Origin: an uncultured Candidatus Saccharibacteria bacterium
Lineage (GTDB): Bacteria > Patescibacteriota > Doudnabacteria > UBA920
Assembly (NCBI GenBank): GCA_964474825.1
Contig: CAYYWQ010000001.1
Coordinates: forward strand, 1,130,184-1,194,183
Direction of reading: 5' to 3'
DNA length: 64,000 bases
Shown here: positions 971 through 23,014 of the stretch, piece after piece
Layout of the letters: every line of letters begins with the position of its first letter
Position numbering within the stretch: position 1 is the first letter of the stretch
Made by a program: the position numbers and the translations under genes
The notes under the pieces: generated by a model
Told to the model about the DNA's origin: nothing
What the model saw: the letters and a program-made list of their open reading frames with translations, nothing else
Database searches by the model: none

Positions 971-1255
971 TTAGGCAACTGCCTTTCTTGGCGGCATTTC
1001 TGCAGCTGTTTCTTCGACGATCCGCCAGTTGGCAAGCCCGTCGAATAAGAAGAAGCAGTCGCGTGGGAGTTCCTCGGCCTCTAGGTCGAGATGGAGGGTG
1101 GAGCCAACGGGGTCGGGTCGGCACCGAACCTTGGTTTTAGGGAGATTAGTTCCCCAAAGTATTCCGAAGTCCGGATCTGTCCGGTTCCAGAAGAATCCGC
1201 GAAGAGCGGCCCACATGAAAAGTTGAGATTCAAACTGAAGTCGCAGGTGAATCAT
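971..1255 (-). CDS. Hypothetical 94-aa protein in a GC-rich (~55%) islet
   Basis: Strong SD (AAGGAGGT, 5 nt before ATG) on the minus strand. The ORF fills the space between two terminators. Local GC is much higher than in flanking genes. No recognisable domain. Confidence 0.4.
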   Translation of the reverse strand: MIHLRLQFESQLFMWAALRGFFWNRTDPDFGILWGTNLPKTKVRCRPDPVGSTLHLDLEAEELPRDCFFLFDGLANWRIVEETAAEMPPRKAVA

Positions 1256-1311
1256 AGCGACCTCCTTTGCTTAAGAGTATATTCCTAAATTTATATTTAT
1301 ACAAATCAAAT

Positions 1312-1343
1312 AAAATACCCCCGCCAAGGCGGGGGTATTTTAC
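1312..1343. terminator. Bidirectional rho-independent terminator downstream of trpS
   Basis: aaaatacccccgcc-aa-ggcgggggtatttt hairpin flanked by A and T tracts. Confidence 0.6.
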
Positions 1344-1350
1344 AATAAAT

Positions 1351-2331
1351 TTATAGCAAGCCGATCTTTTGTTTTACTTCTACTAACGTTTCCTGCGCGA
1401 CTTTTTTTGCCTTGTGTGCGCCTTCTCCTAAGACTTCGGCCAAGTATTCGGGTTTAGATAGGAATTCTTTTTTCTTTTCCCTAAACTCTGCAAAGTAATC
1501 GGCTATGGATTTAGCCAGGGATTCTTTAAGTTCGCTGAATTTTAGGGTTTCTGCTCTTTGCGCGTCACGGAAATAACTTATTTGTTCCTGGTCTCCAAAA
1601 TGTTCTAAAAGTACAAATAAATTTTCTACTCCCTGGGACTGTTTACCGGCTTCGCTTGCAGTTACGGATTTTTTAAGTTTTTCCATTATTTCTTTTGGTT
1701 CATCATCAAGGAATAAGCAGCCGGCAGGGGAGGACTTGGACATTTTTTTGTCCGGCTGCTTAAGGTCCATAACTTTGGGGAACTTGGTCCACAGCGGTTC
1801 TATTTCTTTAAAGAATTGCCCAAAACGGTTGTTAAATTTTCTGGCAATAACATTGGTCAGTTCCAAATGCTGCTTTTGGTCAATGCCAACTGGGACAAAA
1901 TTGGCTTTGTAAACCAAAATGTCCGCGGCCATAAGTACTGGGTAGTCAAACAAACCCATGTTAATGTTCTTGGCCTGCTTTTGGGATTTGTCTTTAAACT
2001 GAGTCATGCGTTCCATTTCCGCAACAGGAGTAATGCAGTTAAAAATCCAGGCCAATTCTGTGTGTTCCGGAATTTGGGACTGCAAAAATATTGTAGATTT
2101 GTTTGGGTCTACTCCGGCTGCCAAAAAATTAGCAAGCAAATCCAAAGTCATTCCCTTTTTTTCTTTGGGCTCGTAGTCCTCGCTAATGGAATGGTAGTCT
2201 ACCAAAGTAAAAAAACAATTATACTTCTCAGTATTTTGCAGTGTTACAAAATTAGAAAGCGCCCCTAAATAATTGCCAATATGCAATTTGCCCGAAGGCT
2301 GTATACCCGAAACTATGGTTGGTTTAGTCAT
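1351..2331 (-). CDS. trpS: Tryptophan--tRNA ligase
   Basis: Class I aaRS 'HIGN' (…GKLHIGNYLGA…) and 'KMSKS' motifs. 326 aa, the typical TrpS size. Confidence 0.9.
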   Translation of the reverse strand: MTKPTIVSGIQPSGKLHIGNYLGALSNFVTLQNTEKYNCFFTLVDYHSISEDYEPKEKKGMTLDLLANFLAAGVDPNKSTIFLQSQIPEHTELAWIFNCITPVAEMERMTQFKDKSQKQAKNINMGLFDYPVLMAADILVYKANFVPVGIDQKQHLELTNVIARKFNNRFGQFFKEIEPLWTKFPKVMDLKQPDKKMSKSSPAGCLFLDDEPKEIMEKLKKSVTASEAGKQSQGVENLFVLLEHFGDQEQISYFRDAQRAETLKFSELKESLAKSIADYFAEFREKKKEFLSKPEYLAEVLGEGAHKAKKVAQETLVEVKQKIGLL

Positions 2332-2376
2332 ATAGTAGATTATATCAAAAAACTCCCCAAAAGGGGAGTTTTAAGT

Positions 2377-4206
2377 TTAGACTTCAATTACTACCGGTAA
2401 TACCATTGGTCGTCTCTCTGTTTTCTGGTAAAGGTATTCACCAATTTCATCTCGAATAACATTTCTCAAGTAAGCCCAGTTGGGTTCTAGTTTTTCTTTG
2501 CCTTTGCTTTCAACTAGTTTGCGGACTTCGTGTTTAACTTCTCTTATTAAATCGTCGTTGCCTTTCATATAAATAAAGCCGCGGGAAATAATGTCGGGTT
2601 GGTTAACGAGTTTTCCGCTTCGTCTGTCCAAAGTCATAATAATTACGAACATTCCGTCTTGCGCCATAACTTGGCGGTCGCGAATAACAACTTCGCCAAC
2701 ATCGCCCACACCAAGGCCGTCTATAAAGACATAGCCGCTGGCTATTTTAGGGTCTTCTACAATTTTGGCGTCGCGCGCGGTGTTAAGTTCCAGAATTTGG
2801 CCATTGTCCAAAGTAAAAATGTTGGTGTCAGGAATACCCATGGTTTTAGCGAGCTCAGCGTGAGCTACTATCATGTGGTGCTCACCGTGAATAGGCATAA
2901 AATATTTGGGTTTGACCAAAGCCATCATTAACTTTAATTCTTCCTGCTGGGCGTGTCCGGAAGTGTGGATGTCCAAAGTTTTGTTGTAAATTACGTGCGA
3001 GCCAAGACGTGTTAAGTTGGACAACATGGTTGAAATGGCGCGCTCGTTGCCAGGAATGGGGGAGGCAGAAACAATTGTGGTGTCGCCCTTTTTAATTTTA
3101 ACTGTTTTGTGGTCGCCGCGGGCAATGCGGGCAAGTCCTGCCGCGTCTTCACCCTGGGCGCCGGTGGTTAAAATAACTATTTGGTTGTCCGGCAGTTTTT
3201 TAGCTTGCTCAGACTTTAAAATAATTTTTGGCTGAATTTTAAGGTAACCCAAAGACAGCGCGATTTCAATATTGTTGACCATAGAGCGGCCGGTAACAAT
3301 AACTTTGCGGTTGTATTTGGCTGCGGCGTCAAACACTTGCTGAATACGGGAAATACTGGTACTAAAGTTGGCAAAAATAATTCTGCCTCTTATGTCGCCA
3401 AAGGTTCTGTCTATAGTAATGCCCAATTCGCGTTCGGAAATACAATAGCCGGGCTTGGTCGCATTCGTAGAGTCGGACATTAAAAGCAAAACGCCTTCAG
3501 CGCCGAATTTGGCAATTTTGTCGAATTCCGTAGGCTTTCCGTCTACAGGCGTGTGGTCAAATTTCCAGTCCGTGGCGTAAACAATTTGACCTACCGGAGT
3601 GGTAATGCATAAGCCCATACCGTCCGGGATGCTGTGGTTAGTGCGAAAAAAACGTACTTTAAAATTACCAAGTGACAAAACATCGTCTTTGGTTAATACG
3701 TTTATTTTGGAGCGTCCTAAAACACCGAATTCTTCCAAACGCTTTTTGGTAAAGGCTGCGGTTAAGGCCATGGTGTAAACGGGCGGGTCTCCAAGTTTAG
3801 GGAGAATGTAAGGCACGGCGCCAATGTGGTCTAAGTGACCGTGAGTTAAAATAACTCCGCGAATACGTTTGCGGTTTTCTTCCAGCCATTTGGTGTCCGG
3901 AATAATATAGTCAATGCCGGGCATAGTGTCGTCCGGAAAAGCCAGACCCATGTCTATTACAATTAGGTCGTTGCCGTATTCCAATACGGTCATGTTTTCT
4001 CCGACTTCTTCAATACCGCCCATCGGGATGATGCGCAGGTTCTGGCGGGAAGCCGTGTATGGGCTGGTGGCGGCCGCGGTTTGCGGGTTTAGGCCAGTAG
4101 CCTTGTTTATGAGCATATCCAAACGGTCAGTGCCGCCGTGGGGGTTATGCTGGTTGCTGCCCGGGGCGTTTTGTGGCCGCGGCACAGGCATGTTTTTTCT
4201 CATCAT
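2377..4206 (-). CDS. rnj: Ribonuclease J (metallo-beta-lactamase/beta-CASP RNase)
   Basis: 'ILTHGHLDHIGA' MBL motif and beta-CASP region. An N-terminal low-complexity extension of about 55 aa means the true start may be internal. Confidence 0.85.
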   Translation of the reverse strand: MMRKNMPVPRPQNAPGSNQHNPHGGTDRLDMLINKATGLNPQTAAATSPYTASRQNLRIIPMGGIEEVGENMTVLEYGNDLIVIDMGLAFPDDTMPGIDYIIPDTKWLEENRKRIRGVILTHGHLDHIGAVPYILPKLGDPPVYTMALTAAFTKKRLEEFGVLGRSKINVLTKDDVLSLGNFKVRFFRTNHSIPDGMGLCITTPVGQIVYATDWKFDHTPVDGKPTEFDKIAKFGAEGVLLLMSDSTNATKPGYCISERELGITIDRTFGDIRGRIIFANFSTSISRIQQVFDAAAKYNRKVIVTGRSMVNNIEIALSLGYLKIQPKIILKSEQAKKLPDNQIVILTTGAQGEDAAGLARIARGDHKTVKIKKGDTTIVSASPIPGNERAISTMLSNLTRLGSHVIYNKTLDIHTSGHAQQEELKLMMALVKPKYFMPIHGEHHMIVAHAELAKTMGIPDTNIFTLDNGQILELNTARDAKIVEDPKIASGYVFIDGLGVGDVGEVVIRDRQVMAQDGMFVIIMTLDRRSGKLVNQPDIISRGFIYMKGNDDLIREVKHEVRKLVESKGKEKLEPNWAYLRNVIRDEIGEYLYQKTERRPMVLPVVIEV

Positions 4207-4492
4207 GTCTAAAAATTGTTCTGCCTATTTGCGTTCTAGGCTAAATTAATATTAGTTTATCAATCAGTCTAAAGACCGTGATAAATCTTTTACAGTGGCT
4301 TACTGGGCCGACCATTAAAAGATTTGCTCGCAATTAGCAAATGCCAAATAAAAAAAGATTTTTTATGAGAAATTTGATAACTGATTTTTGCTTTATTTCA
4401 AGACGTTGCTAACCGTTTCTATAATTATACACTGTTAAGGGATTTTTGTCAATGTTGTAACTAGATGGCCGAAGGCCACGAGCGAAGCCTTA

Positions 4493-4579
4493 TGGTGCCG
4501 CGGGAGGGACTTGAACCCTCACGACCTTGCGGTCATACGCACCTGAAGCGTACGTGTATGCCAATTCCACCACCGCGGC
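4493..4579 (-). tRNA. tRNA-Leu (anticodon CAG), type II with long variable arm, CCA encoded
   Basis: Reverse complement folds as a cloverleaf: acceptor GCCGCGG/CCGCGGC, anticodon stem TACGC/GCGTA with loop TTCAGGT, long variable arm, T-loop GGTTCAAGTCC, 3' CCA. Confidence 0.85.
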
Positions 4580-4665
4580 GTGAATTCAGTATAAAGTAAA
4601 AAGTTGAAAGTTAAAAGTATTTTTTATATCTGCGCCATCTGTTTCTATCTGCGTATCTGTGGTTT

Positions 4666-6417
4666 TTATTTCCACTCCCTGCTCTGTTCCGTATACCAGT
4701 TGTTTATATCGTAAAAGCGCTGGCTTGGGTCGAATAGGGTTTTTATGCCAATGTTTTTTATGTTAGGTTCAAGCGCGTAAATATAGACGGCTTGGTCCAG
4801 TAAAATAACGGCGTTTTTAGAAGCAATTATGCCGTCCAGCTGTTGGTATTTTTCGTTGCGCGCTGCCTGGTCGGTTGTAGCGCGGGCGTCGTTAATAAGT
4901 TTGTCTAAGTTAGGGTCCGCAAGGCCGGTTAAATTAAAGCCAGGGTCTTTTATTTGGCTGCTGTGCCAAAAAGGGAAAGGGTCTGGGTCGGCGTTGAATT
5001 TTTCCGGGAACAATAAAACATCAAATTGGCGCGGACGGATAACCTGGTCAGTGAGCTGTTTGCTTGGGACTACGGTTAAGTTAATTTTTATGTTGAGTTT
5101 GCGCCATTGCTGGGCTAAGATGTCCGCGGCCTGGGAGTTTAGGGAGGAATCGTTGGTAATTAAGTTAAGTTCCAGGACCTGTTTGCTCTTTGTGCGAAGA
5201 TTGGTGACAGCGTCAATTTTCCATCCATCCTGGTCCAGTAGTTGGTTGGCTCCTGTTATGTCCGGCTGAGCCGACAGGGGGTTGGAAGACAGTCCCTGGC
5301 TTAAAAGTAGAGGGGAAGTGGGCAGCAGGGCCTGGCCGTTAAAAACAGTGTTAATAATTTCCCGGCGGTCCACGGCCTGGCTTAAAGCTTGTCTTACGTT
5401 ACCGTTGCTTAAAATTTTATTGCTTAAATTAAAAAATACAGCCTGGTACTGAGGGAGGGGAAGTTTGAGGATTTGCGAATCGCTGCGGTCTTTGTCAGGC
5501 TCTACAGTACCGCCCAAAGAAACAAAACCAAAGCCTTGGATTTGTCCGCTGTGCAGGGCGTTTTTTGCGTCCTGGTCAGAGTCATAAAATTTTATGGTCA
5601 GGGTGGAGATTTTGGGAGCGCCTCCGTAAAAATCACCAAACGCTTCCAGGGTAATTTGTCCAACTTTGCCGCTGGTGAGCTTGGTTATTTCCTTAATGGC
5701 GTAAGGGCCGCTGCCCACGGCTTTCAGGTTGGTTTCTGAGAGTAAAAAGTTTTGTCCGTTAACCTTTCCCCAAATAGCTTTAGGTAAAATGGGCAGAGTC
5801 AGGTTTTGAATAAAAGGTCCGGAGGCGTTTTTTAAGGTAAATTTTACGGTAAAGTCATCAACTTTTTCCACTGTGGTGGTTTGCCACATTACGCGCAGCG
5901 GACTTTTAAAATTGGGGTCCTGGAGGGTTTGGATGGTAAAGAGTATGTCGTCGGCGGTTACGGGTTTACCATTTTGCCACTTGGCATTTTTTTTCAAAGT
6001 TACGGTGTACTGTTTTAGGTCTTCGGAAATCTGGGGTTGGGCTTCGGCTAAGTCAGGCACCAGCTGGCCGTTGCCGTCGTATTTATAGAGTCCGGAAAAA
6101 ACCAGTTTGGTTAAAGACAGGTCGGGTTCCATACGGGCCAGTACCGGATTAATGTAGGTTGGTTGTCCTACTAATCCTTCACTGTATTCGCCGCCATTGG
6201 CCGGTACTGCAACGGAATGATTGTAATAAAAGTTTTTAACTGACAGGTACAAGTTGGCAAATGCCAAAAGCAGTAAGACTATTACGGCGATTTTTTCCCG
6301 TTTGCCCATTAAAGAAAAAACTTTCCGCAAGTGGGAAAGGCGAAGGTTTTTTATCTGTTTAGCGCCGGTGTAAACTTGCTTGCTAAAAGATATTAAGTTT
6401 TGGAACAAATCGGTCAT
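4666..6417 (-). CDS. ABC transporter substrate-binding protein, family 5 (oligopeptide/dipeptide-binding-like), N-terminal membrane anchor
   Basis: Length and composition typical of SBP_bac_5 proteins. One N-terminal TM helix. No cognate permease in the window. Confidence 0.7.
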   Translation of the reverse strand: MTDLFQNLISFSKQVYTGAKQIKNLRLSHLRKVFSLMGKREKIAVIVLLLLAFANLYLSVKNFYYNHSVAVPANGGEYSEGLVGQPTYINPVLARMEPDLSLTKLVFSGLYKYDGNGQLVPDLAEAQPQISEDLKQYTVTLKKNAKWQNGKPVTADDILFTIQTLQDPNFKSPLRVMWQTTTVEKVDDFTVKFTLKNASGPFIQNLTLPILPKAIWGKVNGQNFLLSETNLKAVGSGPYAIKEITKLTSGKVGQITLEAFGDFYGGAPKISTLTIKFYDSDQDAKNALHSGQIQGFGFVSLGGTVEPDKDRSDSQILKLPLPQYQAVFFNLSNKILSNGNVRQALSQAVDRREIINTVFNGQALLPTSPLLLSQGLSSNPLSAQPDITGANQLLDQDGWKIDAVTNLRTKSKQVLELNLITNDSSLNSQAADILAQQWRKLNIKINLTVVPSKQLTDQVIRPRQFDVLLFPEKFNADPDPFPFWHSSQIKDPGFNLTGLADPNLDKLINDARATTDQAARNEKYQQLDGIIASKNAVILLDQAVYIYALEPNIKNIGIKTLFDPSQRFYDINNWYTEQSREWK

Positions 6418-6420
6418 TGC

Positions 6421-6642
6421 TTACTTAAGGAGCAAGAGGGCGATGTTTATACCAACGAATAAAATTCCTAAAATAATGGTTGCGTAAAAGAGCCATTTTT
6501 CAAAACCCCGGCGTGTCTGGACTATGTTACCGGCTCCGCCGAAAACATTGGAAAGCCCGGCAGACTTGTTTTGCAGGCTAATGACAACTATGAGGACAAC
6601 CATAACCAGAATGTCCAAAAAGGTGAAAATTGGGTGTTTCAT
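6421..6642 (-). CDS. secG: Preprotein translocase subunit SecG
   Basis: 73 aa with two TM helices and the conserved 'LSNVFGGAG' glycine-rich loop typical of SecG. Confidence 0.75.
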   Translation of the reverse strand: MKHPIFTFLDILVMVVLIVVISLQNKSAGLSNVFGGAGNIVQTRRGFEKWLFYATIILGILFVGINIALLLLK

Positions 6643-6748
6643 ATGAGTTCAAAAAGATCTTGATTATTATACTAGAGTTGGGAGGTTGTGTCAAAAGTCC
6701 GTGGTCCTGCGAAAGGCGCGGTTTTTTAAGGATGTTCCGGGCATTGTG

Positions 6749-8599
6749 CTATAACTGTTGGGATATTAGTAATGCGATCCGCTCTCCAACTATTTCAGAT
6801 AAATCATCAAATTTAGTTTTGCGAATATTGGCCACTGTGCCGAATTTTTGTTTAAGGAGTTTTTTGGTTTTAGGGCCAATGCCTGGGATGTCGTCCAGCG
6901 CGGAGCGGACAGCTTGTTTGGACCGAAGCGAGCGGTGGTAAGTTATGCCAAACCTGTGAGCTTCGTCGCGCAGTCTTTGTAAAAGCTGGAGTGCGGGACT
7001 AGTGTGCGGGAGGATGATGGAGTCAGATTTTCCAGGCTGAAAAATTTCTTCTATTCTTTTTGCTAATCCAATAGTAGGGAGTAGGGGGTAGGGGGTAGCT
7101 TGTAGGATTTCCACTGCGGCTGAAAGTTGTCCTTTGCCCCCGTCTATTACTATTAGGTCTGGCACGGGCCACTGCAGTTTTGCTGATCCGCTGATCCGCT
7201 GATTAGCTGATTTACTGACTCTCGCCATGCGGCGAGAAAACATCTCACGCATCATTGCAAAATCGTCCGGCGTCTTCTTGGTTTTTATGCGAAATTTGCG
7301 GTATTCGCTCTTTTTGGGCAGACCCTTTTCAAACACCACCATGCTGCCCACAGCATTGGTGCCTTGTATGTTTGAAATGTCGTAGCATTCTATGCGGTCC
7401 GGAGTTTTTTCTAATTTTAAAACATCTTTTAGCTCTCCCAGCGCCTGGTTAATTTTGTCCAAATGTCCGGCTTGGCTTTGCAACCAGTTTTTTAAATATT
7501 CCTGCGCGTTGGTTTGTCCAAGTTTTGCTAATTCCCGAGCTTTGCCTTTTTGGGGCGTGGTGATGGTAACTTTTTTGTCGAACCTGGATTTAACAATATG
7601 CGCAACTAATTCAGAATCATCAGCATGGGTTTGGGTGTAAATTATTTTAGGGATACTGGAAGTTTCCAAATAATATTTTTCCAAAAACTTTTGTAATGTT
7701 TCCATTCTGTAGGCATCCGTAGTGTTTTTATTCTGTAGTTCCGTAGCCATTTCGTATATAAAATTTTCCTTGTCAAACAATTTCCCGTCACGCACCTTAA
7801 AAAGGTTCACGCAAGCATAGCCGCTGTCTTCGGCCACGGAAACAATGTCCCAGTCAACTTTTTTGGTTAAAATTACGGTTTGTTTTTCATCCAGTAGTTC
7901 CAGACTCCTTAGTTGGTCGCGCATTTTAGCGGCTTTTTCGAACAAACGCTGCGCAGACGCGGCTTTCATTTCCACTTTTACTTCTTGTTTAACCTTGGCG
8001 GTGCGGCCGGACAAGAAGTAGCAAATTTTTTCCAGTTGTTGTTTGTATTCATCCAGTGTTATTTTTCCAACACAAACACCCGGGCAGCGGTGTAAATAAT
8101 AGTAGAAGCACGGCCTGGTGCTTATTTTTTGCGCGCTGCAATAGGGAAATATACGCCTTACTAAATGAAGGGTACTGCGGATTTTGTAGGCTGCGGTGTA
8201 GGGGCCGAAGAGAGAGCTTTTAGCTTTGCTTATTGTAGAGTCAACTTTCCTCACAACTTCAATTTGGGGGATTTCGGTTTCGTAATTAATTTTTATGAAC
8301 GCATAGTTTTTATCGTCCCTCAGCATTATGTTGTAGCGCGGCAAATATTTTTTTATGAGCGTGTTTTCCAAATACAAACTTTCCAGTTCGCTATTTACAA
8401 CCGTGTATTCAAAGTCTGCCGCCTCTGCCATTAAATAGGGGATTTGTTCCCGCGTATCGTGCCCGGAAAAATATTGGTTAACCCTATTTTTTAAGTTTTT
8501 TGCCTTCCCAACATAAATAACCTCGCCATTTGAATTTTTAAACTCGTAAACGCCGGGTTGTTTGGGTAAGTCTTTAAGTTTTTCTTTTAGTTTGTCCAT
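6749..8599 (-). CDS. uvrC: Excinuclease ABC subunit C (UvrC)
   Basis: N-terminal GIY-YIG ('PGVYEFKNSNGEVIYVGKAKNLKNRVNQYF'), UvrBC-interaction region, C-terminal RNase H-like/HhH domains. 616 aa. Confidence 0.9.
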   Translation of the reverse strand: MDKLKEKLKDLPKQPGVYEFKNSNGEVIYVGKAKNLKNRVNQYFSGHDTREQIPYLMAEAADFEYTVVNSELESLYLENTLIKKYLPRYNIMLRDDKNYAFIKINYETEIPQIEVVRKVDSTISKAKSSLFGPYTAAYKIRSTLHLVRRIFPYCSAQKISTRPCFYYYLHRCPGVCVGKITLDEYKQQLEKICYFLSGRTAKVKQEVKVEMKAASAQRLFEKAAKMRDQLRSLELLDEKQTVILTKKVDWDIVSVAEDSGYACVNLFKVRDGKLFDKENFIYEMATELQNKNTTDAYRMETLQKFLEKYYLETSSIPKIIYTQTHADDSELVAHIVKSRFDKKVTITTPQKGKARELAKLGQTNAQEYLKNWLQSQAGHLDKINQALGELKDVLKLEKTPDRIECYDISNIQGTNAVGSMVVFEKGLPKKSEYRKFRIKTKKTPDDFAMMREMFSRRMARVSKSANQRISGSAKLQWPVPDLIVIDGGKGQLSAAVEILQATPYPLLPTIGLAKRIEEIFQPGKSDSIILPHTSPALQLLQRLRDEAHRFGITYHRSLRSKQAVRSALDDIPGIGPKTKKLLKQKFGTVANIRKTKFDDLSEIVGERIALLISQQL

Positions 8600-8658
8600 G
8601 TTCTTTAATTATAATTAAGGCTAGACAGAAAGTCTATAAAAATATAATCTTCCAGTAA

Positions 8659-8760
8659 TGAAAAAGTGGCTGTTGTTTTTTGCGGCAATTGTGGTGGCCG
8701 TTGTTGTGGTCCCCATAGGGATACCCCTAGGTACAGGGGTGATGAAGAAAAAGGAATAGG
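8659..8760 (+). CDS. Possible 33-aa hydrophobic peptide (MKKWLLFFAAIVVAVVVVPIGIPLGTGVMKKKE), absent from the ORF track because shorter than 60 aa
   Basis: ATG-initiated ORF with a signal-peptide/TM-like core in the GC-enriched region downstream of uvrC. Could be the remnant of a frameshifted gene (see findings). Confidence 0.2.
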
Positions 8761-8789
8761 AGGATAAGGCCATAGACGAAGACGCTGTT

Positions 8790-9092
8790 TTGAAGGGGTT
8801 GGTATTTGCGGTTGCCATATTCATGACCGGAATGGTTTTTTCCGACCATGAGAAGGTCCTGGCTTTCCGGCGGCGGCGTAAAGAAAAGGCTTACCGCAAG
8901 AAGTTCGTTATGCGGCGGCGGCGCATGGGTCAGGAATACCTGCGGTTCCTTGAGAGCTGCCGGCAACCCAAAAAGCCGTTTTTTATTCGCGTGTGGTGCA
9001 CTGCTGTCTATTTGGACCTGGTTTCATTCCGGGCTCGCATGTCAGCGGTTACTCCTCAGCGCGTGGTCATTGAGGATGAAGACGAAGACTAG
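8790..9092 (+). CDS. Hypothetical protein (TTG start; TM helix followed by Arg-rich segment and acidic tail) in a GC-rich islet
   Basis: 100-aa ORF in GC-rich DNA. It lies in a different frame from the preceding small hydrophobic ORF. No recognisable domain. GC-rich DNA inflates random ORFs, so confidence is low. Confidence 0.25.
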   Translation: MKGLVFAVAIFMTGMVFSDHEKVLAFRRRRKEKAYRKKFVMRRRRMGQEYLRFLESCRQPKKPFFIRVWCTAVYLDLVSFRARMSAVTPQRVVIEDEDED

Positions 9093-9130
9093 CTCAGACT
9101 GTCGTGAGACGGGCTGAGCTTTTTGCATAA

Positions 9131-9156
9131 AAAAACCCGCCTTTTTGGCGGTTTTA
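9131..9156 (+). terminator. Rho-independent terminator
   Basis: aaaaacccgcc-ttttt-ggcggtttta hairpin plus T-run. Confidence 0.5.
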
Positions 9157-9285
9157 TAATGAGCTGATATTTTTTACTTACCCTTTAATTTTAGCATAGG
9201 CAGGCTAATTCGTCGAGCCTGGCCTTTTTTACGACCATTGAATTTGAACAGTCTGTTTACTAATATGTATATGTAAGGAGGATCT

Positions 9286-9852
9286 ATGTTTAAGAGACTG
9301 TTTGCGAAGTCGCGCATTCGGAAACTCGACCTGTCTGTGGTTTGCCGCAAGCTGGTTGAAAAGGGATGGACAGAAGAGCGAGCAAAGGCAGCGGAAGCCG
9401 AGTACAAGAAGTTTTTGTACCTCGTGGCTACCGACCGCCTAACCTCCGTGGTACCGTGGCACGACGATGTGGACGAAGTCTGGCATATGCATATGCTGGA
9501 CAGCAGAAAGTACGTGGAAGATTGTGACCACATTTTTGGTTACTATCTCCATCACAACCCACATTTGAATGTTGGCACGGCAAAGCAACGCAAAGCGTTC
9601 GCTGAGACCAAGCGAGAGTATTGGCGAAATGAACGAGATGGCTCGTTTAATAGCCTGTACGACGACGGTGGTTTTACCGGCCTAGGCCATGGTTTGTCCC
9701 CGCCATGGGACCCTCCCCATTCTTCTGGTCACGACTGTGGTGGCCATTCGGATGGTGGTCATTCCGACAGCGGATCCAGTTGTGGTAGTAGTTGCGGATC
9801 TTCGTGCGGAAGTAGTTGTGGCTCGGGATGCGGCAGTGGTTGCAGTTCGTAA
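9286..9852 (+). CDS. DUF1399-like ('glycine-rich domain-containing protein'-like) protein with C-terminal His/Cys-rich (SSCG)n tail
   Basis: Strong SD (AAGGAGGA). The motifs 'EYKKFL', 'VPWHDDVDEVWHMHMLDSRKY', 'CDHIFGYYLHHNP' resemble the DUF1399 family (identified from memory, not searched). The tail is 'GHDCGGHSDGGHSDSGSSCGSSCGSSCGSSCGSGCGSGCSS'. GC-rich. Confidence 0.5.
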   Translation: MFKRLFAKSRIRKLDLSVVCRKLVEKGWTEERAKAAEAEYKKFLYLVATDRLTSVVPWHDDVDEVWHMHMLDSRKYVEDCDHIFGYYLHHNPHLNVGTAKQRKAFAETKREYWRNERDGSFNSLYDDGGFTGLGHGLSPPWDPPHSSGHDCGGHSDGGHSDSGSSCGSSCGSSCGSSCGSGCGSGCSS

Positions 9853-9890
9853 GCAGTATGCGGAATTGTATTTTCCGCAACAGTGGTATT

Positions 9891-9928
9891 CCACTTCTTC
9901 GTTGAAAGAAGTGGGTTTTTGCTTTTTT
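9891..9928 (+). terminator. Rho-independent terminator
   Basis: ccacttc-ttcgttgaaa-gaagtgg hairpin followed by gtttttgctttttt. Confidence 0.55.
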
Positions 9929-10034
9929 ATGAGCCTTATTTATAACTAGTATTTCTATTTTCGTGGTTCTCGTACCCTAGGCTCTTGCCACTTCTTGACA
10001 TAGGTGGTAGAATTGTTACTATGTTTGTCTAAAA

Positions 10035-10140
10035 TTTCTACTAAATACGAAAGTAACTAAAAATACTAAATCTATTAATTTAGCACAGTGTATATTACTT
10101 GGTTTCGTACTTTTAGTTTAATTTAGTATTTAGTAGAGGA
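10035..10140. promoter_or_regulatory. Long imperfect inverted repeat in the uvrA promoter region (candidate operator)
   Basis: 'CTACTAAATACGAAAGTA' (about 10037-10054) is mirrored by 'TTTCGTAC…TAGTATTTAGTAG' (about 10103-10136), immediately upstream of the uvrA SD/ATG. Confidence 0.35.
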
Positions 10141-10146
10141 GCTTTT

Positions 10147-13005
10147 ATGAATGACAAGATCTCTATAAGAGGCGCGCGTCAGCACAATTTAAAGAATATA
10201 GACGTAGATTTGCCGCGCAATAAATTGGTAGTTTTAACAGGCTTGTCCGGGAGCGGCAAGTCTTCTTTGGCGTTCGACACAATTTACGCAGAAGGCCAGC
10301 GCCGCTATGTTGAAAGTCTTTCTGCATACGCGAGGCAGTTTATTGGGTTAATGGATAAACCCGATGTAGATAAAATAGAGGGTTTAAGTCCCGCGATCTC
10401 AATTGATCAAAAATCTGCCTCCCATAACCCGCGTTCTACTGTTGGAACAGTTACGGAAATTTACGATTACCTCCGTTTGCTTTACGCGCGCATTGGCATA
10501 CCGCATTGTCCAGTTTGCGGTAAAAAAATTGCCGGCCAAACTTCCCAGGCCATGGTGGAACAGCTCCTTTCTTTGAAAAAAGACAGCCGCTTAATTTTGT
10601 TGGCGCCGTTTATTAAAGACCAAAAAGGCGAGCATCGAGTAATTTTTGAACAAATTAAAAAAGCCGGGTTTGCCCGCGTGCGCGTAGACGGCGTTTTAAT
10701 GGATTTAAACGAAGCCCAGAATTTAAATTTGGACAAACAGAAAAAGCATACTATAGACGTGGTGGTTGACCGCTTAACAGTATCTGCCGAAGACAAATCC
10801 CGCATTGCTGAAAGTTTAGAAAAGGCTTTGGATTTGGGCGACGGACTTGCAACTGCGTTTCAAATAACTGTGGACGGTAAAACCGAAAAACACGGACCCG
10901 ACATTTTGCTTTCCCAAAAATTCGCCTGTCCGGACGGACATATGTCGCTTTCGGAATTGGACCCGCGCGACTTTAGTTTTAACAGCCCGCACGGCGCTTG
11001 TCCTGAATGTAAAGGTTTGGGCACCAAGCTTACTGTGGAAGCGGATTTGGTAATGCCTAACCAAAAGTTAACTTTGGCTGAAGGCGCCATTCGCCCGTGG
11101 AGCAAGACCACGTCACGCCTTTCTTGGTATAGCAGAATTTTAGAAGCTGTGGCTAAGGAATATGGTTTTTCCGTGCACACGCCCATTAAAGATTTACCCA
11201 AGAAATTTTTGGAAATAATTTTACACGGCACAGGAGACAAAAAAGTCCGCGTGCGTGGGGAGTTTGCCAGCCGCGAAGGCGAGTTTGAAATGAACACGGC
11301 TTTTGAAGGCGTAATAGAAAACTTACAACGTCGCTATCGTGAGACGGACAGCGAATACATGCGCAGCGAAATAGAAAACTATATGCGCGTGCGCCAGTGT
11401 CCAACCTGTAAGGGTCAGCGTTTAAAACCCGAAGTTTTGGCTGTGACCGTGGGTAGTAAGGGGATTGTAGAGGTCGTAAACATGACCATAGACACTGCCG
11501 AAGAGTTTTTTAAAAATTTAAACAAAGAACTTTCCCAAAAAGATCAGGCTATTGCCAAGCAAATTTTAAAAGAAATTAATGCCCGCCTGTTGTTTTTGTT
11601 AAATGTAGGACTGGCCTATCTTTCCCTTGACCGTACCGCCGACACTCTTTCTGGCGGGGAAGCCCAGCGTATTCGTTTGGCCACACAAATTGGCAGCGGC
11701 CTTACCGGGGTCCTCTATATATTAGACGAACCTTCCATTGGGCTGCATCAGCGCGACAATCGTCGTTTATTACAGACCCTAAAAGATCTGAGGGATTTGG
11801 GCAATACCGTTATTATAGTAGAGCACGACGAAGAAACCATTCGCGAAGCAGACTGGGTTGTAGACATTGGCCCGGGTGCGGGCAAGCATGGTGGGGAATT
11901 GGTGGCAGAAGGCACGCCGGCCCAGGTGCAAAAAAATCCTAAAAGCATAACCGGACAGTATTTGTCCGGCAAGGAATTTATAGAAGTCCCCAAAAGGCGC
12001 CGCGCAGGCAACGGGCGCAAGCTTTCTATTGTGGGCGCTGAGGAATTTAATTTAAAGGACGTAAATGTAGACATTCCGTTGGCTAAATTTGTTTGCGTAA
12101 CCGGCGTGTCCGGCAGCGGCAAATCCACTTTAATGAACGACATTCTAGCCCGTGCTTTGTATAAATATTTTTATAACAGCAAAGACGAGCCGGGTAAACA
12201 TAAGAAAATTTTGGGACTTGAACATTTGGACAAAATTATAAACATAGACCAAAGCCCAATTGGCCGCACTCCGCGCAGTAACCCTGCCACATATACCGGT
12301 TTGTTTACTCCTATTCGCGACCTGTACGCAGACACCAAAGAATCCCGTATGCGTGGTTACAAAGCCGGCCGCTTTAGTTTTAATGTTAAGGGCGGTCGCT
12401 GTGAAAAGTGTTTGGGCGACGGTGTCTTACGAGTAGAAATGAATTTTTTGCCAGACGTCTATATTACTTGCGAGGAATGCCATGGTAAACGCTATAACCA
12501 ACAGGCTTTGGAAATTCACTACAAAGACAAAACAATTGCAGACGTATTAGAAATGACAGTAGACGAAGCAAAAATATTTTTTGCCAACTTGCCAATGTTG
12601 CACCGAAAATTGCAAACTCTGTCAGAGGTCGGGCTTGGTTATATGCGTCTAGGCCAAAACGCCACCACAGTTTCCGGCGGTGAAGCCCAGCGTATTAAAT
12701 TAGCCACCGAACTTTCCCGCGCTTCCACAGGCCGTACACTCTATCTTTTGGACGAGCCAACCACTGGTCTTCACTTTGCGGACATTAAACGCTTGGTTCA
12801 CGTGTTAAATAAATTAGTGGAAAAAGGAAACACTGTAGTTGTAATTGAGCATAACTTGGACATGATCAAGACAGCGGACTGGATAATAGACCTAGGCCCC
12901 GAAGGCGGCAACAAGGGCGGTCAGTTAGTCGCAGCCGGCACACCGGAAGACATTGCCAAGGTTAAGACGTCTTATACCGGACAATATCTTAAAAAGATTT
13001 TGTAA
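10147..13005 (+). CDS. uvrA: Excinuclease ABC subunit A (UvrA)
   Basis: Two ABC ATPase modules (Walker A 'GLSGSGKSS' and 'GVSGSGKST', signatures 'LSGGEAQRI' x2), zinc-finger CxxC pairs. 952 aa. Confidence 0.95.
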
Positions 13006-15726: not shown

Positions 15727-15727
15727 T

Positions 15728-16162: not shown

Positions 16163-16166
16163 TTTT

Positions 16167-17028: not shown

Positions 17029-17045
17029 ATTATTAATCATCAAAC

Positions 17046-17546: not shown

Positions 17547-17559
17547 TTTTTTATTTAAA

Positions 17560-17590
17560 AACCTCCTGCAAAGGTGGGAGGTTTTTAAAT
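17560..17590 (+). terminator. Rho-independent terminator after pilin gene
   Basis: acctcc-tgcaaaggtg-ggaggt followed by ttttaaatt. Confidence 0.55.
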
Positions 17591-17667
17591 TGAGCCTATT
17601 GCAAAATTTACTTCAATCTGTTATAAACTCATATAAGTTATGTTCGTGAAAATGGAGGATTAGCAGT

Positions 17668-18309
17668 ATGCAAGAGTTGTATGTTGCAACGCTTGGAGCC
17701 GTCTGGTTCGCGCACCGTGCGGGAAACCAGGTTGTTCTCGATAAGGTTACCGGAAAGGAGCGGAGTTTCGTTGGGGGTTGCCTTGGGCTAACCGACGACT
17801 TCGGAGCCGTAGTTTATCAAGACGCCATTCCCCGCGAGCTTCCGGAGAAAGTGTTCCGTCCGGACGAGCCAGGTTTTGGCGCAACCTGGAAAGGTAACAC
17901 AACGCCAATCGTCGGGTTGTTCTCGTCATTTCAGACGGCATCATCGTATGTTGATTCCAAAGCGTGGAATCTCAGCGTCCCGATGCCGGAAACCGAGACG
18001 ATCATCCAGGTGCTAACCGACCGGCACGAATGGGTGATCTTTGGCCACTCTGCGGCCAAAAGACTTTTCAAACCAGGAGTCATGATTCAGCGCGTTGGTC
18101 AGGTTAAGGATGTTGAGCCTGATCTGCCGAAAGTCGAAGTGAATAGTTCCGGTTGGACTGTGTGCCCCGATTGCAGTAAGTATCAATACTGGGGCGGCGT
18201 GGGAACCAAGAAAAACTGTGAAAGATGCGGCGTCCGGTATCAGGTCGCCCCGGCTACGGCCCCGTCGCGGTCTGGATCTATCGCAGCTTGGAGTCGCTCC
18301 AACTTTTGA
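17668..18309 (+). CDS. Hypothetical 213-aa protein with C-terminal zinc-ribbon (CPDC…CERC), GC-rich
   Basis: SD GGAGGA before ATG. Codon usage is GC3-rich, unlike neighbouring genes. C-terminal 'WTVCPDCSKYQYWGGVGTKKNCERCGVRY'. No recognisable family. Confidence 0.45.
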   Translation: MQELYVATLGAVWFAHRAGNQVVLDKVTGKERSFVGGCLGLTDDFGAVVYQDAIPRELPEKVFRPDEPGFGATWKGNTTPIVGLFSSFQTASSYVDSKAWNLSVPMPETETIIQVLTDRHEWVIFGHSAAKRLFKPGVMIQRVGQVKDVEPDLPKVEVNSSGWTVCPDCSKYQYWGGVGTKKNCERCGVRYQVAPATAPSRSGSIAAWSRSNF

Positions 18310-18765
18310 AAACGTTTTACTCAGCCGGCCAAGGAGGTCTGGCGAAAAAGATGCAGAAACAACATCAACATGGAGCCGGCGATCACCCCACCGCCGGCTT
18401 CCACATTCAATTAACTTTCATGCTTGACACTATATTTTAAAAGGTTTATAATAGCTAAGGATTTAAGAGTATTAAATCTTCCGCCGTCGCTTAAAGCTAT
18501 GGCGAGACACAAGTAACACTTAAAAACGGCATAAACCACAGGTTCAATTTTGCTCTAGTGTAAGCCAAGTTTGGCTGATTGCTAGGGACCCCACAAGTCG
18601 GGGGATTAGAACACTATTCCTGAAATTTGGAATGTGTTTTTTGTTCGCTAAATTTGACCTCCTTCTCCACTTATTTTCCCCAGGTAATACACATCGTGAT
18701 CGCAGCAAAGCATCTTAAAGTAAGAGACTTTGCTCCGCTCAAGATACGAAAAGCGGAGAGTTCTT

Positions 18766-18791
18766 TAACAGCTGAATAGTGATTAGAAAAC
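18766..18791 (+). promoter_or_regulatory. 16S rRNA leader half of the leader/trailer processing stem (RNase III-type)
   Basis: Leader 'TTAACAGCTGAATAGTGATTAGAAAA' is complementary over 15 contiguous nt, extendable to about 27 nt with mismatches, to trailer 20629-20657 'TTTCTAATCACTATTTAGCCGTTAA'. Confidence 0.55.
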
Positions 18792-19043
18792 ATTAGTTAC
18801 CGCCCGGTAACTAGTGTGTACAAAACCATCGTGTCTTGATTGATTTAAACCCAATCGAGATGCAATGTTTGCGTCAATTCAATTTGAGTTCAATGATATT
18901 CTGTGAATAACAGAAAAATGTTTTGATAATTTACATTTTACAAAAATAAATTATCGCCAAGGTTTGTCTTTTAGACAGATCGAACCACTGGATTTAATTC
19001 TCCGAAATTTAATTTGGATTACGGGTTAAGTTTAGTTTTAATA

Positions 19044-20503
<1,460 letters not shown>

Positions 20504-20628
20504 AAGGAATAAAATATATGGCCTGGTAGAATTTCGATTTTACCTGTTGTCATACATTCCATAGGTCGTCGTTAATTTTTTCGAAAATTAGCGCTACTCT
20601 ATTACGAAGAGACGCAAACGGTTCTGTA

Positions 20629-20657
20629 CTTTCTAATCACTATTTAGCCGTTAAAGG
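20629..20657 (+). promoter_or_regulatory. 16S rRNA trailer half of the processing stem
   Basis: Complementary to leader 18766-18791 (see above). Confidence 0.55.
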
Positions 20658-20661
20658 TTAA

Positions 20662-20700
20662 ACTGCATGAAAAAAATCGCCCACAAGGCGATTTTTTGTT
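20662..20700 (+). terminator. Terminator-like element, copy A of a roughly 40-bp direct repeat
   Basis: ACTGCATGAAAAAAA + hairpin tcgccc-acaa-ggcga + TTTTTTGT. The same architecture recurs at 23128-23168. Confidence 0.55.
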
Positions 20701-20770
20701 TGGTAATTTACTCTTGATTTTTCAAGAGTTTTATGGTATTTTATAGAGTCCCGAAGGAGGGATAATACAA

Positions 20771-23014
20771 ATGCTACTTTACCAGATTGCACCTCTGGTT
20801 GATTTTTTGAGCGGGAACAAACCATCTCGCTCCGCTTTGGATTCCTTCCTTCAGGGAAAGCTGAAGGCTGGGGCACATCCATTTTTCCTGATGCAACTCA
20901 TGATCTTCGTGTCTGCGTCTTGCCCGGATCGGGCGGACTATCTGACAGATGCGGGTATTAGGGCTTTGAAACGAGTGAAGGACCGTTTGCAACAAGTTCC
21001 TGATGTTCCAGGAACCGAAGTCCAGGATCCGTTGCAACGCATATACGATGCGCCCGATGTCCCTCGTAAGACTGACGAGGGTATTATCCACGGCGTCGTA
21101 ATTGAGTCCTGCATGAACCTCATCCAGTCAAAAGTCGGCGGATCAATCCCAACTAGCGGATGGAAGAATTGGATGGGGACCGTTAGTTTAATTTGTAAGC
21201 ATCCTCAATCGACAGTTGCCGTTTTGGACAACATCGTCCAATTGACCTCTGGAATGGTAGAGCAGGATAGTCGTTTCCCAAAAGGAATGGCAGAGATGTT
21301 TGAGGCTATCCAACAAGAATTCTTCCAGAGGAGAGCTCAGCAGATTGGACTGAAGCGCTTGGTTGGGGAATTGGTTGAAACATGGAGCTTGGATTCAGCT
21401 TATCGATTCTTCGCTCTGCTCGTTCATCTTTTCCTTGCGGCAACCGATCCCGCTCAACCGTTGGGTGCGGATGTTCCTGGGACCACGATCTTGCGGACAA
21501 TTTTGGAAATCAAGGACAAGTCTTTGACTCAAGCAAAAAAGGAAATCCTTGACTATCCTTTGTTTTCCGCTTCCGAAGCCGACACTGACTATGACACTTC
21601 CATGATTGTGTCGAGGGCGGCACAGGTACTTGTGGAGATGCTCAAGGCAGAGTTGCCGGCTGTCGAAACCGTCCATGCCATCGCTAAACTTCTGAAAACG
21701 GTTAATCGTACCAACCGTGAGCAGTGGGTGGCTTATCTCGCGTTTCAAGCCAAACCGACTCTTGGCATCGACCCGCGCAGCGCCGACCTTTTAGAGAGTC
21801 TGCTGGGAGCAGAAGCTTGGAAGGCTTTGTGTGAACTTTCCAACCCAAAACATTGGGGTACTAACGTCCAGGTCACTACCGGTTTTAGACTTTATACCGG
21901 CTTGGATACCACATCGGAGGAGTACCGAGTTTTTTTTGGGAAGCTCCGCGCCATCGACTTCGATCATCACAACACCAGATTGGCTGAACTGTTGGACCGT
22001 CAGGTTCACGCCTCGGACCATACGCCTAAAGAAGCCAAGGACGCTTGCGACCGAGTTGTAAATCTCCTCGCCGGTGACACCGTTTTCAACTCCACCCATC
22101 TCCGCTTGGAATGGATGCGAGTCAAGCGCCGCGCTGACGAATTTCTCGGCGCTCACATTCCGCGCATTGATGTTGCCGTTCATCCGAAGTTCGGAGAGAG
22201 CGGTACCGCTTGCAAGTTCCGGATTTTCTTTACGGAATTGCCTGACGACCAGATTAGCGGCCTTATGGGACCGGAAGGGGAGATTGAGTTCAATAATATT
22301 GTTCTCCTTACTCTTTTCGGTCGAGACGGGCTGCGCGCTGCAGTGCTTGAATCCCTCGGCGCTATCCTGATTCCGCGTTATCTTGAACGGATACCAAGTC
22401 CGTTGCGCGGCGGCTTTGGCGGCAACTTTACTGGCGAGGTTTGGGCAGCGCGTCCTGCCTACCATACGCTGATACAAGTCCAGGAGAATCCCGATCCTGT
22501 CGGGCCTTCCTTCGGCAACCGTATTAACCCGGAAATCGCCAGGCTCGTGTTCCTATGGCTAACAGGCGAGGCCGCGGACTGTCCTTTCCGTCTGTATCGT
22601 AAGGTCAAGGAGAAACCCGAAGGGGAACAAACCGAGGACACTTACTACGTCGGTTGGGATTCGGCGAAACACTACCTTCTCTCCGAGAAGGTGACGCTAT
22701 CGCAGGTTTACCTGCGCACTGTTCGGGCACATACCAAGCCGGTCGGTGTCAAAGTCGAAAACGACGGTACGGTTGTGGTGCGGCAAGTCAGCGACAGGGC
22801 CAAACGCAACTACCGGCGATTTTTGTCCGACACCGGGCGACAGCTCGACATGACTCCAGTTCGCAAGACCTGCGAGTTACCCGGCGGTGTGCGGATTGTT
22901 CTCACTCTGGAGCGTACCTTCAACCAAGGGACTTTCAACTCCCTGGACGAAGTCTGGGTAATGATCCCGGACTTAACCTTGAAGGCCGACGCGAAACGTA
23001 GCTTTAAATTCTGA
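20771..23014 (+). CDS. Hypothetical 747-aa protein, GC-rich, no recognisable domains
   Basis: SD AAGGAGGG 8 nt before ATG. A 2.2-kb ORF without stops in 53-55% GC DNA. A palindrome (ctcttga-tttt-tcaagag) lies in its promoter region. Codon usage differs from the host. Confidence 0.55.
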   Translation: MLLYQIAPLVDFLSGNKPSRSALDSFLQGKLKAGAHPFFLMQLMIFVSASCPDRADYLTDAGIRALKRVKDRLQQVPDVPGTEVQDPLQRIYDAPDVPRKTDEGIIHGVVIESCMNLIQSKVGGSIPTSGWKNWMGTVSLICKHPQSTVAVLDNIVQLTSGMVEQDSRFPKGMAEMFEAIQQEFFQRRAQQIGLKRLVGELVETWSLDSAYRFFALLVHLFLAATDPAQPLGADVPGTTILRTILEIKDKSLTQAKKEILDYPLFSASEADTDYDTSMIVSRAAQVLVEMLKAELPAVETVHAIAKLLKTVNRTNREQWVAYLAFQAKPTLGIDPRSADLLESLLGAEAWKALCELSNPKHWGTNVQVTTGFRLYTGLDTTSEEYRVFFGKLRAIDFDHHNTRLAELLDRQVHASDHTPKEAKDACDRVVNLLAGDTVFNSTHLRLEWMRVKRRADEFLGAHIPRIDVAVHPKFGESGTACKFRIFFTELPDDQISGLMGPEGEIEFNNIVLLTLFGRDGLRAAVLESLGAILIPRYLERIPSPLRGGFGGNFTGEVWAARPAYHTLIQVQENPDPVGPSFGNRINPEIARLVFLWLTGEAADCPFRLYRKVKEKPEGEQTEDTYYVGWDSAKHYLLSEKVTLSQVYLRTVRAHTKPVGVKVENDGTVVVRQVSDRAKRNYRRFLSDTGRQLDMTPVRKTCELPGGVRIVLTLERTFNQGTFNSLDEVWVMIPDLTLKADAKRSFKF

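Follow-up and report, generated by a model that had tools for sequence, protein, structure and literature searches.

Why should the chromosome of a candidate phyla radiation bacterium carry scattered single genes that are clearly GC-richer than their neighbours and, in most cases, preceded by strong Shine–Dalgarno (SD) sites? The question is raised by a 64,000-nt stretch of a Candidatus Doudnabacteria genome (the window), in which an initial annotation had picked out five such segments, here called islets, and had suspected recent horizontal acquisition or membership of one selfish family. Our analysis suggests that the five are probably unrelated, lineage-restricted accessory genes that derive from a gene pool apart from that of the core genes, with one of them, a 747-aa gene, as an exception of longer standing. 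The window has a GC content of 43.6%, which is above the ~40% first ascribed to the genome. It encodes a HAD-family hydrolase, tryptophanyl-tRNA synthetase (TrpRS), RNase J, a family-5 solute-binding protein, UvrC, UvrA and type IV pilus components, and the same proteins were recovered from Logan assemblies and from a 1.21-Mb NCBI contig. Loci anchored on UvrA in GTDB genomes assign the window to Doudnabacteria. The islets, with GC content and GC at third codon positions (GC3) given for whole open reading frames (ORFs), are as follows.

971..1255, minus strand: islet 1, 94-aa ORF; GC 0.540, GC3 0.568; AAGGAGGT lies 5 nt ahead of the ATG; a gene call in both NCBI and Logan data.
8658..9092, plus strand: islet 2, one frame with a single TAG at 8757-8759 that leaves a 33-aa hydrophobic ORF (8658-8759) and a 100-aa ORF from the TTG at 8790 (8790-9092; GC 0.535, GC3 0.644, the maximum GC3 of the window).
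9286..9852, plus strand: islet 3, 188-aa ORF; GC 0.527, GC3 0.545; N-terminal GRDP-like domain and C-terminal Gly/Ser/Cys-rich tail, (GSSC)n.
17668..18309, plus strand: islet 4, 213-aa ORF; GC 0.548, GC3 0.589; an ORFan with a C-terminal CxxC...CxxC zinc-ribbon-like motif.
20771..23014, plus strand: islet 5, 747-aa ORF; GC 0.524, GC3 0.574; member of an uncharacterised ~750-aa family in candidate phyla radiation genomes.

The compositional distinctness of these segments is borne out by the measurements. Their GC is 0.52–0.55 versus 0.39–0.46 in flanking genes, and their GC3 of 0.55–0.64 corresponds to z-scores of 2.1–3.9 relative to the host mean of 0.430 (sd 0.054, n = 41); GC at the first and second codon positions (GC1 and GC2) is elevated as well. 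The segment GC of 53–58% given originally has to be lowered to 52–55% for whole ORFs, and 57% is reached only in local windows of 300 nt. The 16S rRNA gene, the 5′ part of RNase J and part of a 2893-aa ORF are also GC-rich, thus high GC is not exclusive to the islets.

Codon and amino-acid use separates four of the islets from the host more sharply. Native genes with raised GC3 (RNase J, the solute-binding protein, an RRM RNA-binding protein and a 402-aa ORF) prefer C-ending pyrimidine codons, and the G-ending fraction of their two-fold purine codons, G/(G+A), is 0.26–0.39. For four islets this fraction is 0.56–0.65 (0.65 in islet 2 and 0.56 in the 213-aa ORF), versus a host mean of 0.35. Moreover, the five products pooled contain 7.2% Arg, 3.7% Ile and 2.5% Asn, compared with 3.2%, 7.2% and 5.0% in host proteins. 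This shift in codons and amino acids argues against translational selection in the four islets and for a separate gene pool, since composition differs at all three codon positions, purine codons end in G, and the proteins are Arg-rich and poor in Ile and Asn. Judged by codon use, the four islets are a compositional regime apart from the host's optimal codons. The codons of the 94-aa ORF, with C/(C+T) of 0.81 and G/(G+A) of 0.36, resemble those of native high-GC3 genes, and this ORF could be a native, highly expressed gene.

The second distinguishing trait is the SD site. The anti-SD is supplied by the only 16S rRNA gene of the window:

19037-20501, plus strand: 16S rRNA gene (Rfam RF00177, 1390 bits), a GC-rich stretch between islets 4 and 5 that is not itself an islet.

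Its 3′ end reads GATCACCTCCTTTCT, with a perfect, intact anti-SD. SD strength was calculated for 47 window genes as the duplex energy of the 22 nt upstream of the start against the 16S tail. The four best values belong to the 94-aa (−13.3 kcal/mol), 747-aa (−13.0), 188-aa (−11.1) and 213-aa (−9.3) genes, the fifth best is −8.7, and most host genes lie above −4 kcal/mol. Strong SDs are found in four of seven high-GC3 genes and in none of the remaining 40 (Fisher p = 2e-4). The early statement that most segments have near-perfect SDs therefore stands for four of the five; it does not stand for the segment at 8640–9100 (islet 2), in which no well-placed SD precedes a canonical start and GGAGGA at 8759-8764 lies 8 nt ahead of an in-frame ATA at 8772. 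Islet 2 may be a pseudogene or a mis-defined gene: a nonsense mutation, stop-codon read-through or a non-canonical start would each be consistent with its layout. Neither of its exact products (33 aa and 100 aa) was found in a collection of 15 billion proteins.

How host genes start is suggested by another signal. In 12 of 46 genes a -10-like hexamer, in several cases a perfect TATAAT, lies 5–10 nt before the start codon, which suggests leaderless mRNAs for about a quarter of host genes. Part of the Parcubacteria has lost the anti-SD motif altogether (PMC9297842), and this loss fits a weakened use of SD sites in the candidate phyla radiation; our literature search found no paper that connects SD use and leaderless genes with Patescibacteria. 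In the four SD-bearing islets, folding of the start region is more stable than in host genes (−11.2 versus −6.4 kcal/mol, p = 0.02, n = 4), a difference that lends weak support to the view that an SD is needed where the start region is rich in GC. We infer a foreign or exchanged origin of the islets, leadered and SD-dependent islet mRNAs, and a link between SD use and mRNA structure.

The surroundings of the islets are consistent with single-gene transcription units. Terminators below were located by a terminator scan unless stated otherwise, and the 747-aa gene is treated separately.

932..958, plus strand: hairpin terminator common to the HAD hydrolase gene (plus strand) and the 94-aa ORF (minus strand).
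1256..1343, minus strand: upstream region of islet 1, with SD at 1260-1267, -10-like TATACT at 1281-1276 and -35-like TTGTAT at 1304-1299.
1310-1343: bidirectional terminator ending the TrpRS gene.
9137..9151: bidirectional terminator between islets 2 and 3.
9238..9281, plus strand: promoter-like site and SD of islet 3, TTGAAT at 9238-9243, 17-nt spacer, TAATAT at 9261-9266, and SD AAGGAGG at 9275-9281 (by eye).
9890..9915, plus strand: terminator of islet 3.
17599..17659, plus strand: promoter-like site and SD of islet 4, TTGCAA at 17599-17604, 17-nt spacer, TATAAA at 17622-17627, and SD GGAGGA at 17654-17659.

The promoter-like -35/-10 pairs with 17-nt spacers were assigned by eye upstream of four ORFs and are candidate promoters; the one of islet 4 lies downstream of the pilin-operon terminator at ~17561-17588. 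Terminator-like hairpins (from the scan and from reading the sequence) flank the units at 932-958, 1310-1343, 9137-9151, 9890-9915, 20677-20697 and 23143-23163, in agreement with the initial annotation, which had described the segments as wedged between host terminators. It was also right in placing the 94-aa ORF between the terminators of a convergent gene pair, the HAD-family hydrolase gene (with a phosphomannomutase-like Pfam match) and the TrpRS gene.

The products themselves say little about function. None of the five was assigned in Pfam, NCBIfam, PHROG or PADLOC, which agrees with the view that no housekeeping function is recognisable and, together with the hairpins and promoter-like sites, with their prediction as non-housekeeping, single-gene transcription units. 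The sole hint was a sub-threshold match of the 188-aa protein to the GRDP-like family (PF07173), with 22.0 bits at a cut-off of 22.7 (E = 2.9e-4) and profile positions 94-143 of 143 covered. Residues 33-79 resemble the C-terminal part of this GRDP-like/DUF1399 profile, but the score is below the cut-off, the profile is covered only in part, and the (GSSC)n tail lies outside the family model. In tblastn, residues 6-114 are 35–42% identical to proteins from plasmids or chromids of GC-rich Proteobacteria, one annotated as 'glycine-rich domain-containing protein-like', and the N-terminal domain also matches a 595-kb uncultured phage. The 94-aa protein has no family match and nothing resembling it among phages, viral contigs or PDB sequences. 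The 213-aa protein is a singleton that forms a cluster by itself and, among 5.8 billion clusters, is its own sole match; it matched nothing in phages, plasmids, viral contigs, PDB sequences or any family library. The anti-phage defence models of PADLOC gave no match at E <= 0.1 for the five islets or for the neighbouring 402-aa ORF.

Comparison with related genomes shows that the islets occupy variable slots in a conserved backbone. We used 80 UvrA-anchored loci as relatives, the closest of which in GTDB have a UvrA 85–86% identical to that of the window, and searched 84 loci with the islet products by tblastn. The order TrpRS – RNase J – solute-binding protein – UvrC – UvrA recurs in many of the 80 loci. 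The 94-, 33/100-, 188- and 213-aa products had no tblastn match in the 84 loci, and the same slots are occupied by other ORFs unrelated to the islets; downstream of the TrpRS gene in locus L008, for example, there are two GC-rich ORFs with strong SDs. The absence of four segments from syntenic positions supports the atypical origin proposed at the outset. In the gap upstream of uvrA, nearly all of 31 genomes differ in the ORF that they carry; of 41 such ORFs, 16 have an SD of -9 kcal/mol or stronger. This gap, ~1.7 kb upstream of uvrA (loci L005-L043, locus coordinates ~8300-10000), holds mutually non-homologous ORFs in ~31 Doudnabacteria-like genomes and looks like a hot spot for orphan-gene turnover.

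The association of the two traits extends beyond the window. In a set of 552 ORFs taken from 36 Doudnabacteria-like loci, those with a GC3 excess of 0.08 or more tend also to have an SD of -9 kcal/mol or stronger (counts 21/45/45/441, odds ratio 4.6, p = 3e-6). Both traits coincide in 21 ORFs, every one of them locus-unique; of the ORFs with neither trait, 44% are. Strong SDs precede 21% of the ORFs that are unique to a locus, compared with 2% of those conserved in at least five loci (odds ratio 9, p = 7e-12), and their frequency is independent of genome GC.

The 747-aa gene differs from the other islets in having recognisable relatives, and its flanks contain further elements.

20662..20697, plus strand: direct repeat ACTGCATGAAAAAAA, left copy, with a hairpin and T-run after it; also the terminator after the 16S rRNA gene.
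20712..20767, plus strand: promoter/5′ untranslated region (5′UTR) block, with the palindrome CTTGATTTTTCAAG at 20713-20726 that includes the -35 TTGATT at 20714-20719, and with the -10 TATTTT at 20737-20742.
20754-20761, plus strand: leader SD, within AGTCCCGAAGGAGGGATAAT.
23128..23163, plus strand: right copy of ACTGCATGAAAAAAA, ahead of a hairpin unlike the first; terminates the convergent 402-aa gene.

Among 5.8 billion clusters only three close homologs were found (77%, 76% and 61% identity). An exhaustive profile search extended these to a family of 30 representatives at 50% identity, nearly all of ~750 aa, and a metagenome scan with a narrower family alignment found one locus. The family has no Pfam or PDB match by sequence. 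With a 28-sequence alignment, AlphaFold2 gave a model of the 747-aa protein with pLDDT 85.4 and pTM 0.74 (a 4-sequence alignment gave an unusable one, pLDDT 45), which consists of a ~440-residue N-terminal helical repeat and a ~300-residue C-terminal alpha/beta domain; Foldseek searches of PDB and BFVD returned nothing significant for it. The ratio of non-synonymous to synonymous substitution rates (dN/dS) among the four close homologs is 0.11–0.20 at a synonymous divergence (dS) of 1.2–2.1, and the gene is under purifying selection.

The four copies have different neighbour genes in all four genomes, one of which is a Doudnabacteria-like assembly (GCA_964589415.1), and they remain GC-rich (GC 0.52–0.56, GC3 0.57–0.67, G/(G+A) 0.57–0.62) in neighbourhoods of ~0.40–0.47 GC. 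Distant family members lie next to genes for ribosome recycling factor, MreB, elongation factor P (EF-P), RecA, ribosomal proteins S6 and S18, and topoisomerase I and have roughly host GC (0.37 in a locus of 0.37, 0.53 in a locus of 0.51). The strong SD is present in nine of ten candidate phyla radiation loci, with −9.4 to −11.5 kcal/mol at L085 1771-4026, L087 3167-5386, L089 7731-10013, L090 8001-10226 and L092 5016-7325; the core neighbours in those loci (S6, S18, EF-P, RecA, single-stranded-DNA-binding protein and MreB) have none. Since distant members of host GC keep the strong SD, the SD is no marker of foreign origin for the 747-aa gene. By these comparisons the SD is an old family trait, and the high GC has outlasted the expected neutral drift to host composition. 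For the same genome pair, dS is 1.25 for the 747-aa gene and 1.59 for UvrA and is saturated (infinity) for UvrC, all of them near saturation.

These results divide the proposal of recent horizontal acquisition. Four islets do depart from the host beyond what translational selection would produce, but recency cannot be read from composition or SD for the 747-aa gene, whose three homologs are equally GC-rich (0.54–0.56) despite dS of 1.2–2.1 and whose SD is a trait of the family. The initial annotation had named homologs of equally high GC in related low-GC genomes as evidence against transfer, and for this islet, the largest, such evidence was found in part.

The 56-nt block 5′ of the 747-aa gene is near-invariant in the four homologous loci, with similarity ending abruptly at ~-58. 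The palindrome CTTGATTTTTCAAG, which overlaps the -35, is kept in all four genomes (the window and L002-L004) even though synonymous sites are saturated, and is a possible operator. The window contains this one copy and none upstream of other islets, and a regulatory motif shared among the islets was rejected on this ground. The unit is bracketed by the exact 15-nt repeat ACTGCATGAAAAAAA, each copy forming with a GC hairpin and T-run a predicted bidirectional terminator. The repeat was not seen around the homologs in L002-L004, and it could have been duplicated upon insertion, or the two terminators could have a common origin. The adjoining 402-aa ORF (23187-24395, minus strand) is a cluster of one with no family match; with GC of 0.48, host-like codons and a moderate SD (−8.7), it is a lineage-specific gene that does not carry the GC signature.

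How could such genes have come to lie where they do? In the account that we consider probable, at least four islets would be self-contained units, each made of a sigma-70-type promoter, a ~15–30-nt leader with an AAGGAGG SD, one ORF and an intrinsic terminator, and placed in the gaps between conserved operons. Core genes would mostly start without an SD, from leaderless mRNAs or AT-rich leaders, whereas islet genes would use classic SD pairing, as their GC-richer, more structured start regions would be unable to use the default route of the host. The source pool could be horizontal input from an unsampled source or genes often exchanged among Doudnabacteria, with high turnover at hot spots such as the uvrC–uvrA gap. 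The 747-aa gene would be the exception, a long-standing member of a candidate phyla radiation family, with the SD and the promoter/5′UTR block as family traits.

Several observations weigh against this account. No donor was found for any islet, and with the 213-aa protein a singleton, the suggestion that these are genes of a partner organism could not be upheld, as no donor can be named. The codon use of the 94-aa ORF is host-like. The nearest relatives are distant (UvrC ~56–64% identical, dS saturated), and hence the absence of an islet could mean divergence beyond recognition instead of gain; moreover, starts in relatives were taken from the longest ORF, which is a source of noise. Locus-unique ORFs overall are not enriched in GC3 (mean delta-GC3 −0.011). 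The 747-aa homologs stay GC-rich through dS >1, and distant members of the family combine host GC with a strong SD. High GC can thus persist without recent transfer, possibly in other islets too, and by itself it is no proof of such transfer; the inference of recent transfer is weakened for the other islets as well.

A broader and more tentative idea, which we hold to be possible yet doubtful, is that two regimes of translation initiation track gene age: an SD-less core, and GC-richer, fast-turnover ORFans that, along with a few old genes, have perfect SDs. The ORFans would arrive as promoter–SD–ORF–terminator cassettes from an unsampled reservoir, for example phages or plasmids of candidate phyla radiation bacteria or a host bacterium, and would land at hot spots; the ~750-aa family, with a fold for which no relative was detected, would be an example of an old gene with a perfect SD. 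If this is true, SD strength and GC3 would be a practical marker of the mobile gene pool of unculturable symbionts.

The islets might instead be native after all, and two explanations of this kind deserve weighing. Vertical inheritance, with GC kept high by a gene-specific process such as GC-biased gene conversion or mRNA selection, and with the strong SD reflecting the need of a leadered, GC-rich mRNA in an otherwise non-SD organism, is unlikely, although the 747-aa gene lends it support. The GC3 of that gene and its three homologs has held at 0.57–0.67 over dS of 1.2–2.1, the SD is kept in nine of ten family loci across host genomes of 37–51% GC, its protein is 77% identical where UvrC is ~56–62% identical, and its dS is slightly below that of UvrA; in addition, G- and C-ending codons are both raised, as mutational or conversion bias would give. 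Against it stand the four islets that have no homolog in related loci, among them the 213-aa protein, for which 5.8 billion clusters hold no homolog either, and the rise of Arg and fall of Ile and Asn, which show that non-synonymous positions are affected too; distant ~750-aa members at host GC also indicate that high GC is not intrinsic to the family. That the islets are native, highly expressed small genes, with SD and GC3-rich codons shaped by translational selection, is improbable. RNase J, the family-5 solute-binding protein and the RRM RNA-binding protein do raise GC3 through C-ending codons, and the 94-aa ORF follows the same pattern and has the strongest SD. However, the other four islets favour the G-ending purine codons that native high-GC3 genes avoid, their GC1, GC2 and amino-acid usage are shifted too, ribosomal-protein, EF-P and RecA genes have no SD in related candidate phyla radiation loci, and a strong SD is found in only 2% of conserved genes.

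Mobile elements and artefacts are much harder to reconcile with the data. A selfish or mobile family with dispersed members, or a classical element such as an insertion sequence, a miniature inverted-repeat transposable element (MITE), an integron cassette or a prophage remnant, would fit the compact single-gene units in intergenic slots, the exact 15-nt direct repeat around the 747-aa unit and its changing neighbours in each genome, but we regard this as very improbable. All-against-all BLASTP of the five products gave no similarity, a repeat search found no repeat family common to the islets, and the window contains no transposase or integrase; the single dispersed family imagined at first is thus contradicted. 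Scans of viral contigs with four islets and the ~750-aa family alignment gave no match, and tblastn against phages and plasmids was negative except for the GRDP-like domain of the 188-aa protein. Nor do the traits of particular element classes appear. For a classical genomic island, the islets are single genes with no integrase domain, the region's only tRNA gene (4493-4579) is not adjacent, and a flanking 15-nt repeat is found at the 747-aa unit only and not around its homologs elsewhere. For integron cassettes, each ORF has its own promoter-like site and T-run terminator, and there is neither a repeat family nor an array. For insertion sequences or MITEs, the products are dissimilar, with no linking repeats and no transposase domains, and only a single copy of the palindrome that precedes the 747-aa gene is present in the window. 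Structured non-coding RNA is the usual cause of GC-rich patches in low-GC genomes. This reading was rejected, as no Rfam family lies inside the islets: at gathering thresholds the window contains the 16S rRNA and three tRNAs and nothing else, and permissive scans of three islet regions gave only sub-threshold matches at terminators. The ORFs look coding, with GC2 as the lowest codon position and dN/dS well constrained in the 747-aa gene. Least credible of all is an assembly or binning artefact that joined contaminant DNA into the contig, for which the compositional difference alone speaks. Logan assemblies of SRR14271372 and SRR14271365 independently reproduce two stretches, 16S – 747-aa – 402-aa and the junction of the 94-aa ORF with the HAD hydrolase gene, which makes the chimera that the initial annotation had worried about unlikely; moreover, units and host genes have terminators in common, and 747-aa homologs lie within other candidate phyla radiation contigs among housekeeping genes.

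Some features of the window stand apart from the islets. The 16S rRNA gene is solitary: a perfect TTGACA-17-TATAAT promoter (18424-18452) lies ~585 nt upstream and a terminator at 20677-20697, neither a tRNA nor a 23S gene comes downstream, and no 23S gene is present in the window. The usual place of tRNA-Ile(GAT) and tRNA-Ala(TGC) is the rRNA spacer; here they lie on the opposite strand, 38 kb from the 16S gene (58135-59027), with a 114-aa ORF between them, and the pair is followed by GMP synthase, not 23S. Two giant ORFs of 2893 aa (25185-33866) and 1664 aa (51426-56420) are present, the start of the former overlapping the end of an 84-aa ORF that precedes it. At 61615-61977 (plus strand), a 120-aa ORF that begins with TTG, and that the initial annotation did not list, has islet-like GC3 (0.55) and G/(G+A) (0.57), has no SD, and appears to lie inside an operon. 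UvrA (10147-13005) is 85–86% identical to its counterparts in L005-L011, versus 56–64% for the adjoining UvrC and ~57% for the solute-binding protein, and several Methanobacterium genomes encode a UvrA of 60% identity.

The finding is modest and mostly ordinary: it leaves current understanding unchanged and refines the recognition of accessory genes. Candidate phyla radiation bacteria have tiny genomes in which most lineage-specific genes are unexplained, and in Doudnabacteria-like loci the two-feature signature of GC3 excess and strong SD singles out locus-unique genes. The SD mechanism would be retained but confined to a minority of genes; in some other members of the radiation the anti-SD is gone altogether. 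The ~750-aa family is of interest in its own right, being conserved and uncharacterised, with a confident model, no structural or sequence relatives found, and a conserved promoter/5′UTR element.

Among known systems, several comparisons can be made. Reduced use of SD sites in Parcubacteria and the candidate phyla radiation (PMC9297842) resembles the situation here, in which core genes are largely without SD, but the window genome keeps a perfect anti-SD, which would serve a small, mostly accessory set of genes. Like lineage-specific ORFans and atypical genomic islets, the segments are short, have few or no homologs, deviate in composition and sit in variable slots of a syntenic backbone. In bacteria, classical ORFans and genes of recent transfer usually exceed their host in AT content, whereas the islets are GC-richer and have the strongest SDs in a mostly SD-less lineage. 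Phage 'morons', as described by Hendrix and Juhala, are said to be autonomous promoter–ORF–terminator units inserted between conserved prophage genes. The islets share with them the single ORF with its own promoter-like site and terminator, the deviant composition, and the position between genes conserved in relatives, present in one genome and absent in others. Unlike morons, they lie in a bacterial chromosome, among TrpRS, RNase J, UvrC, UvrA, type IV pilus and 16S genes and not in a prophage, with no phage genes nearby and no PHROG matches, and the only phage homology is the distant match of the 188-aa domain. By analogy, the closest counterpart of the islets would be a phage moron or a bacterial ORFan islet, in a chromosomal and GC-rich form.

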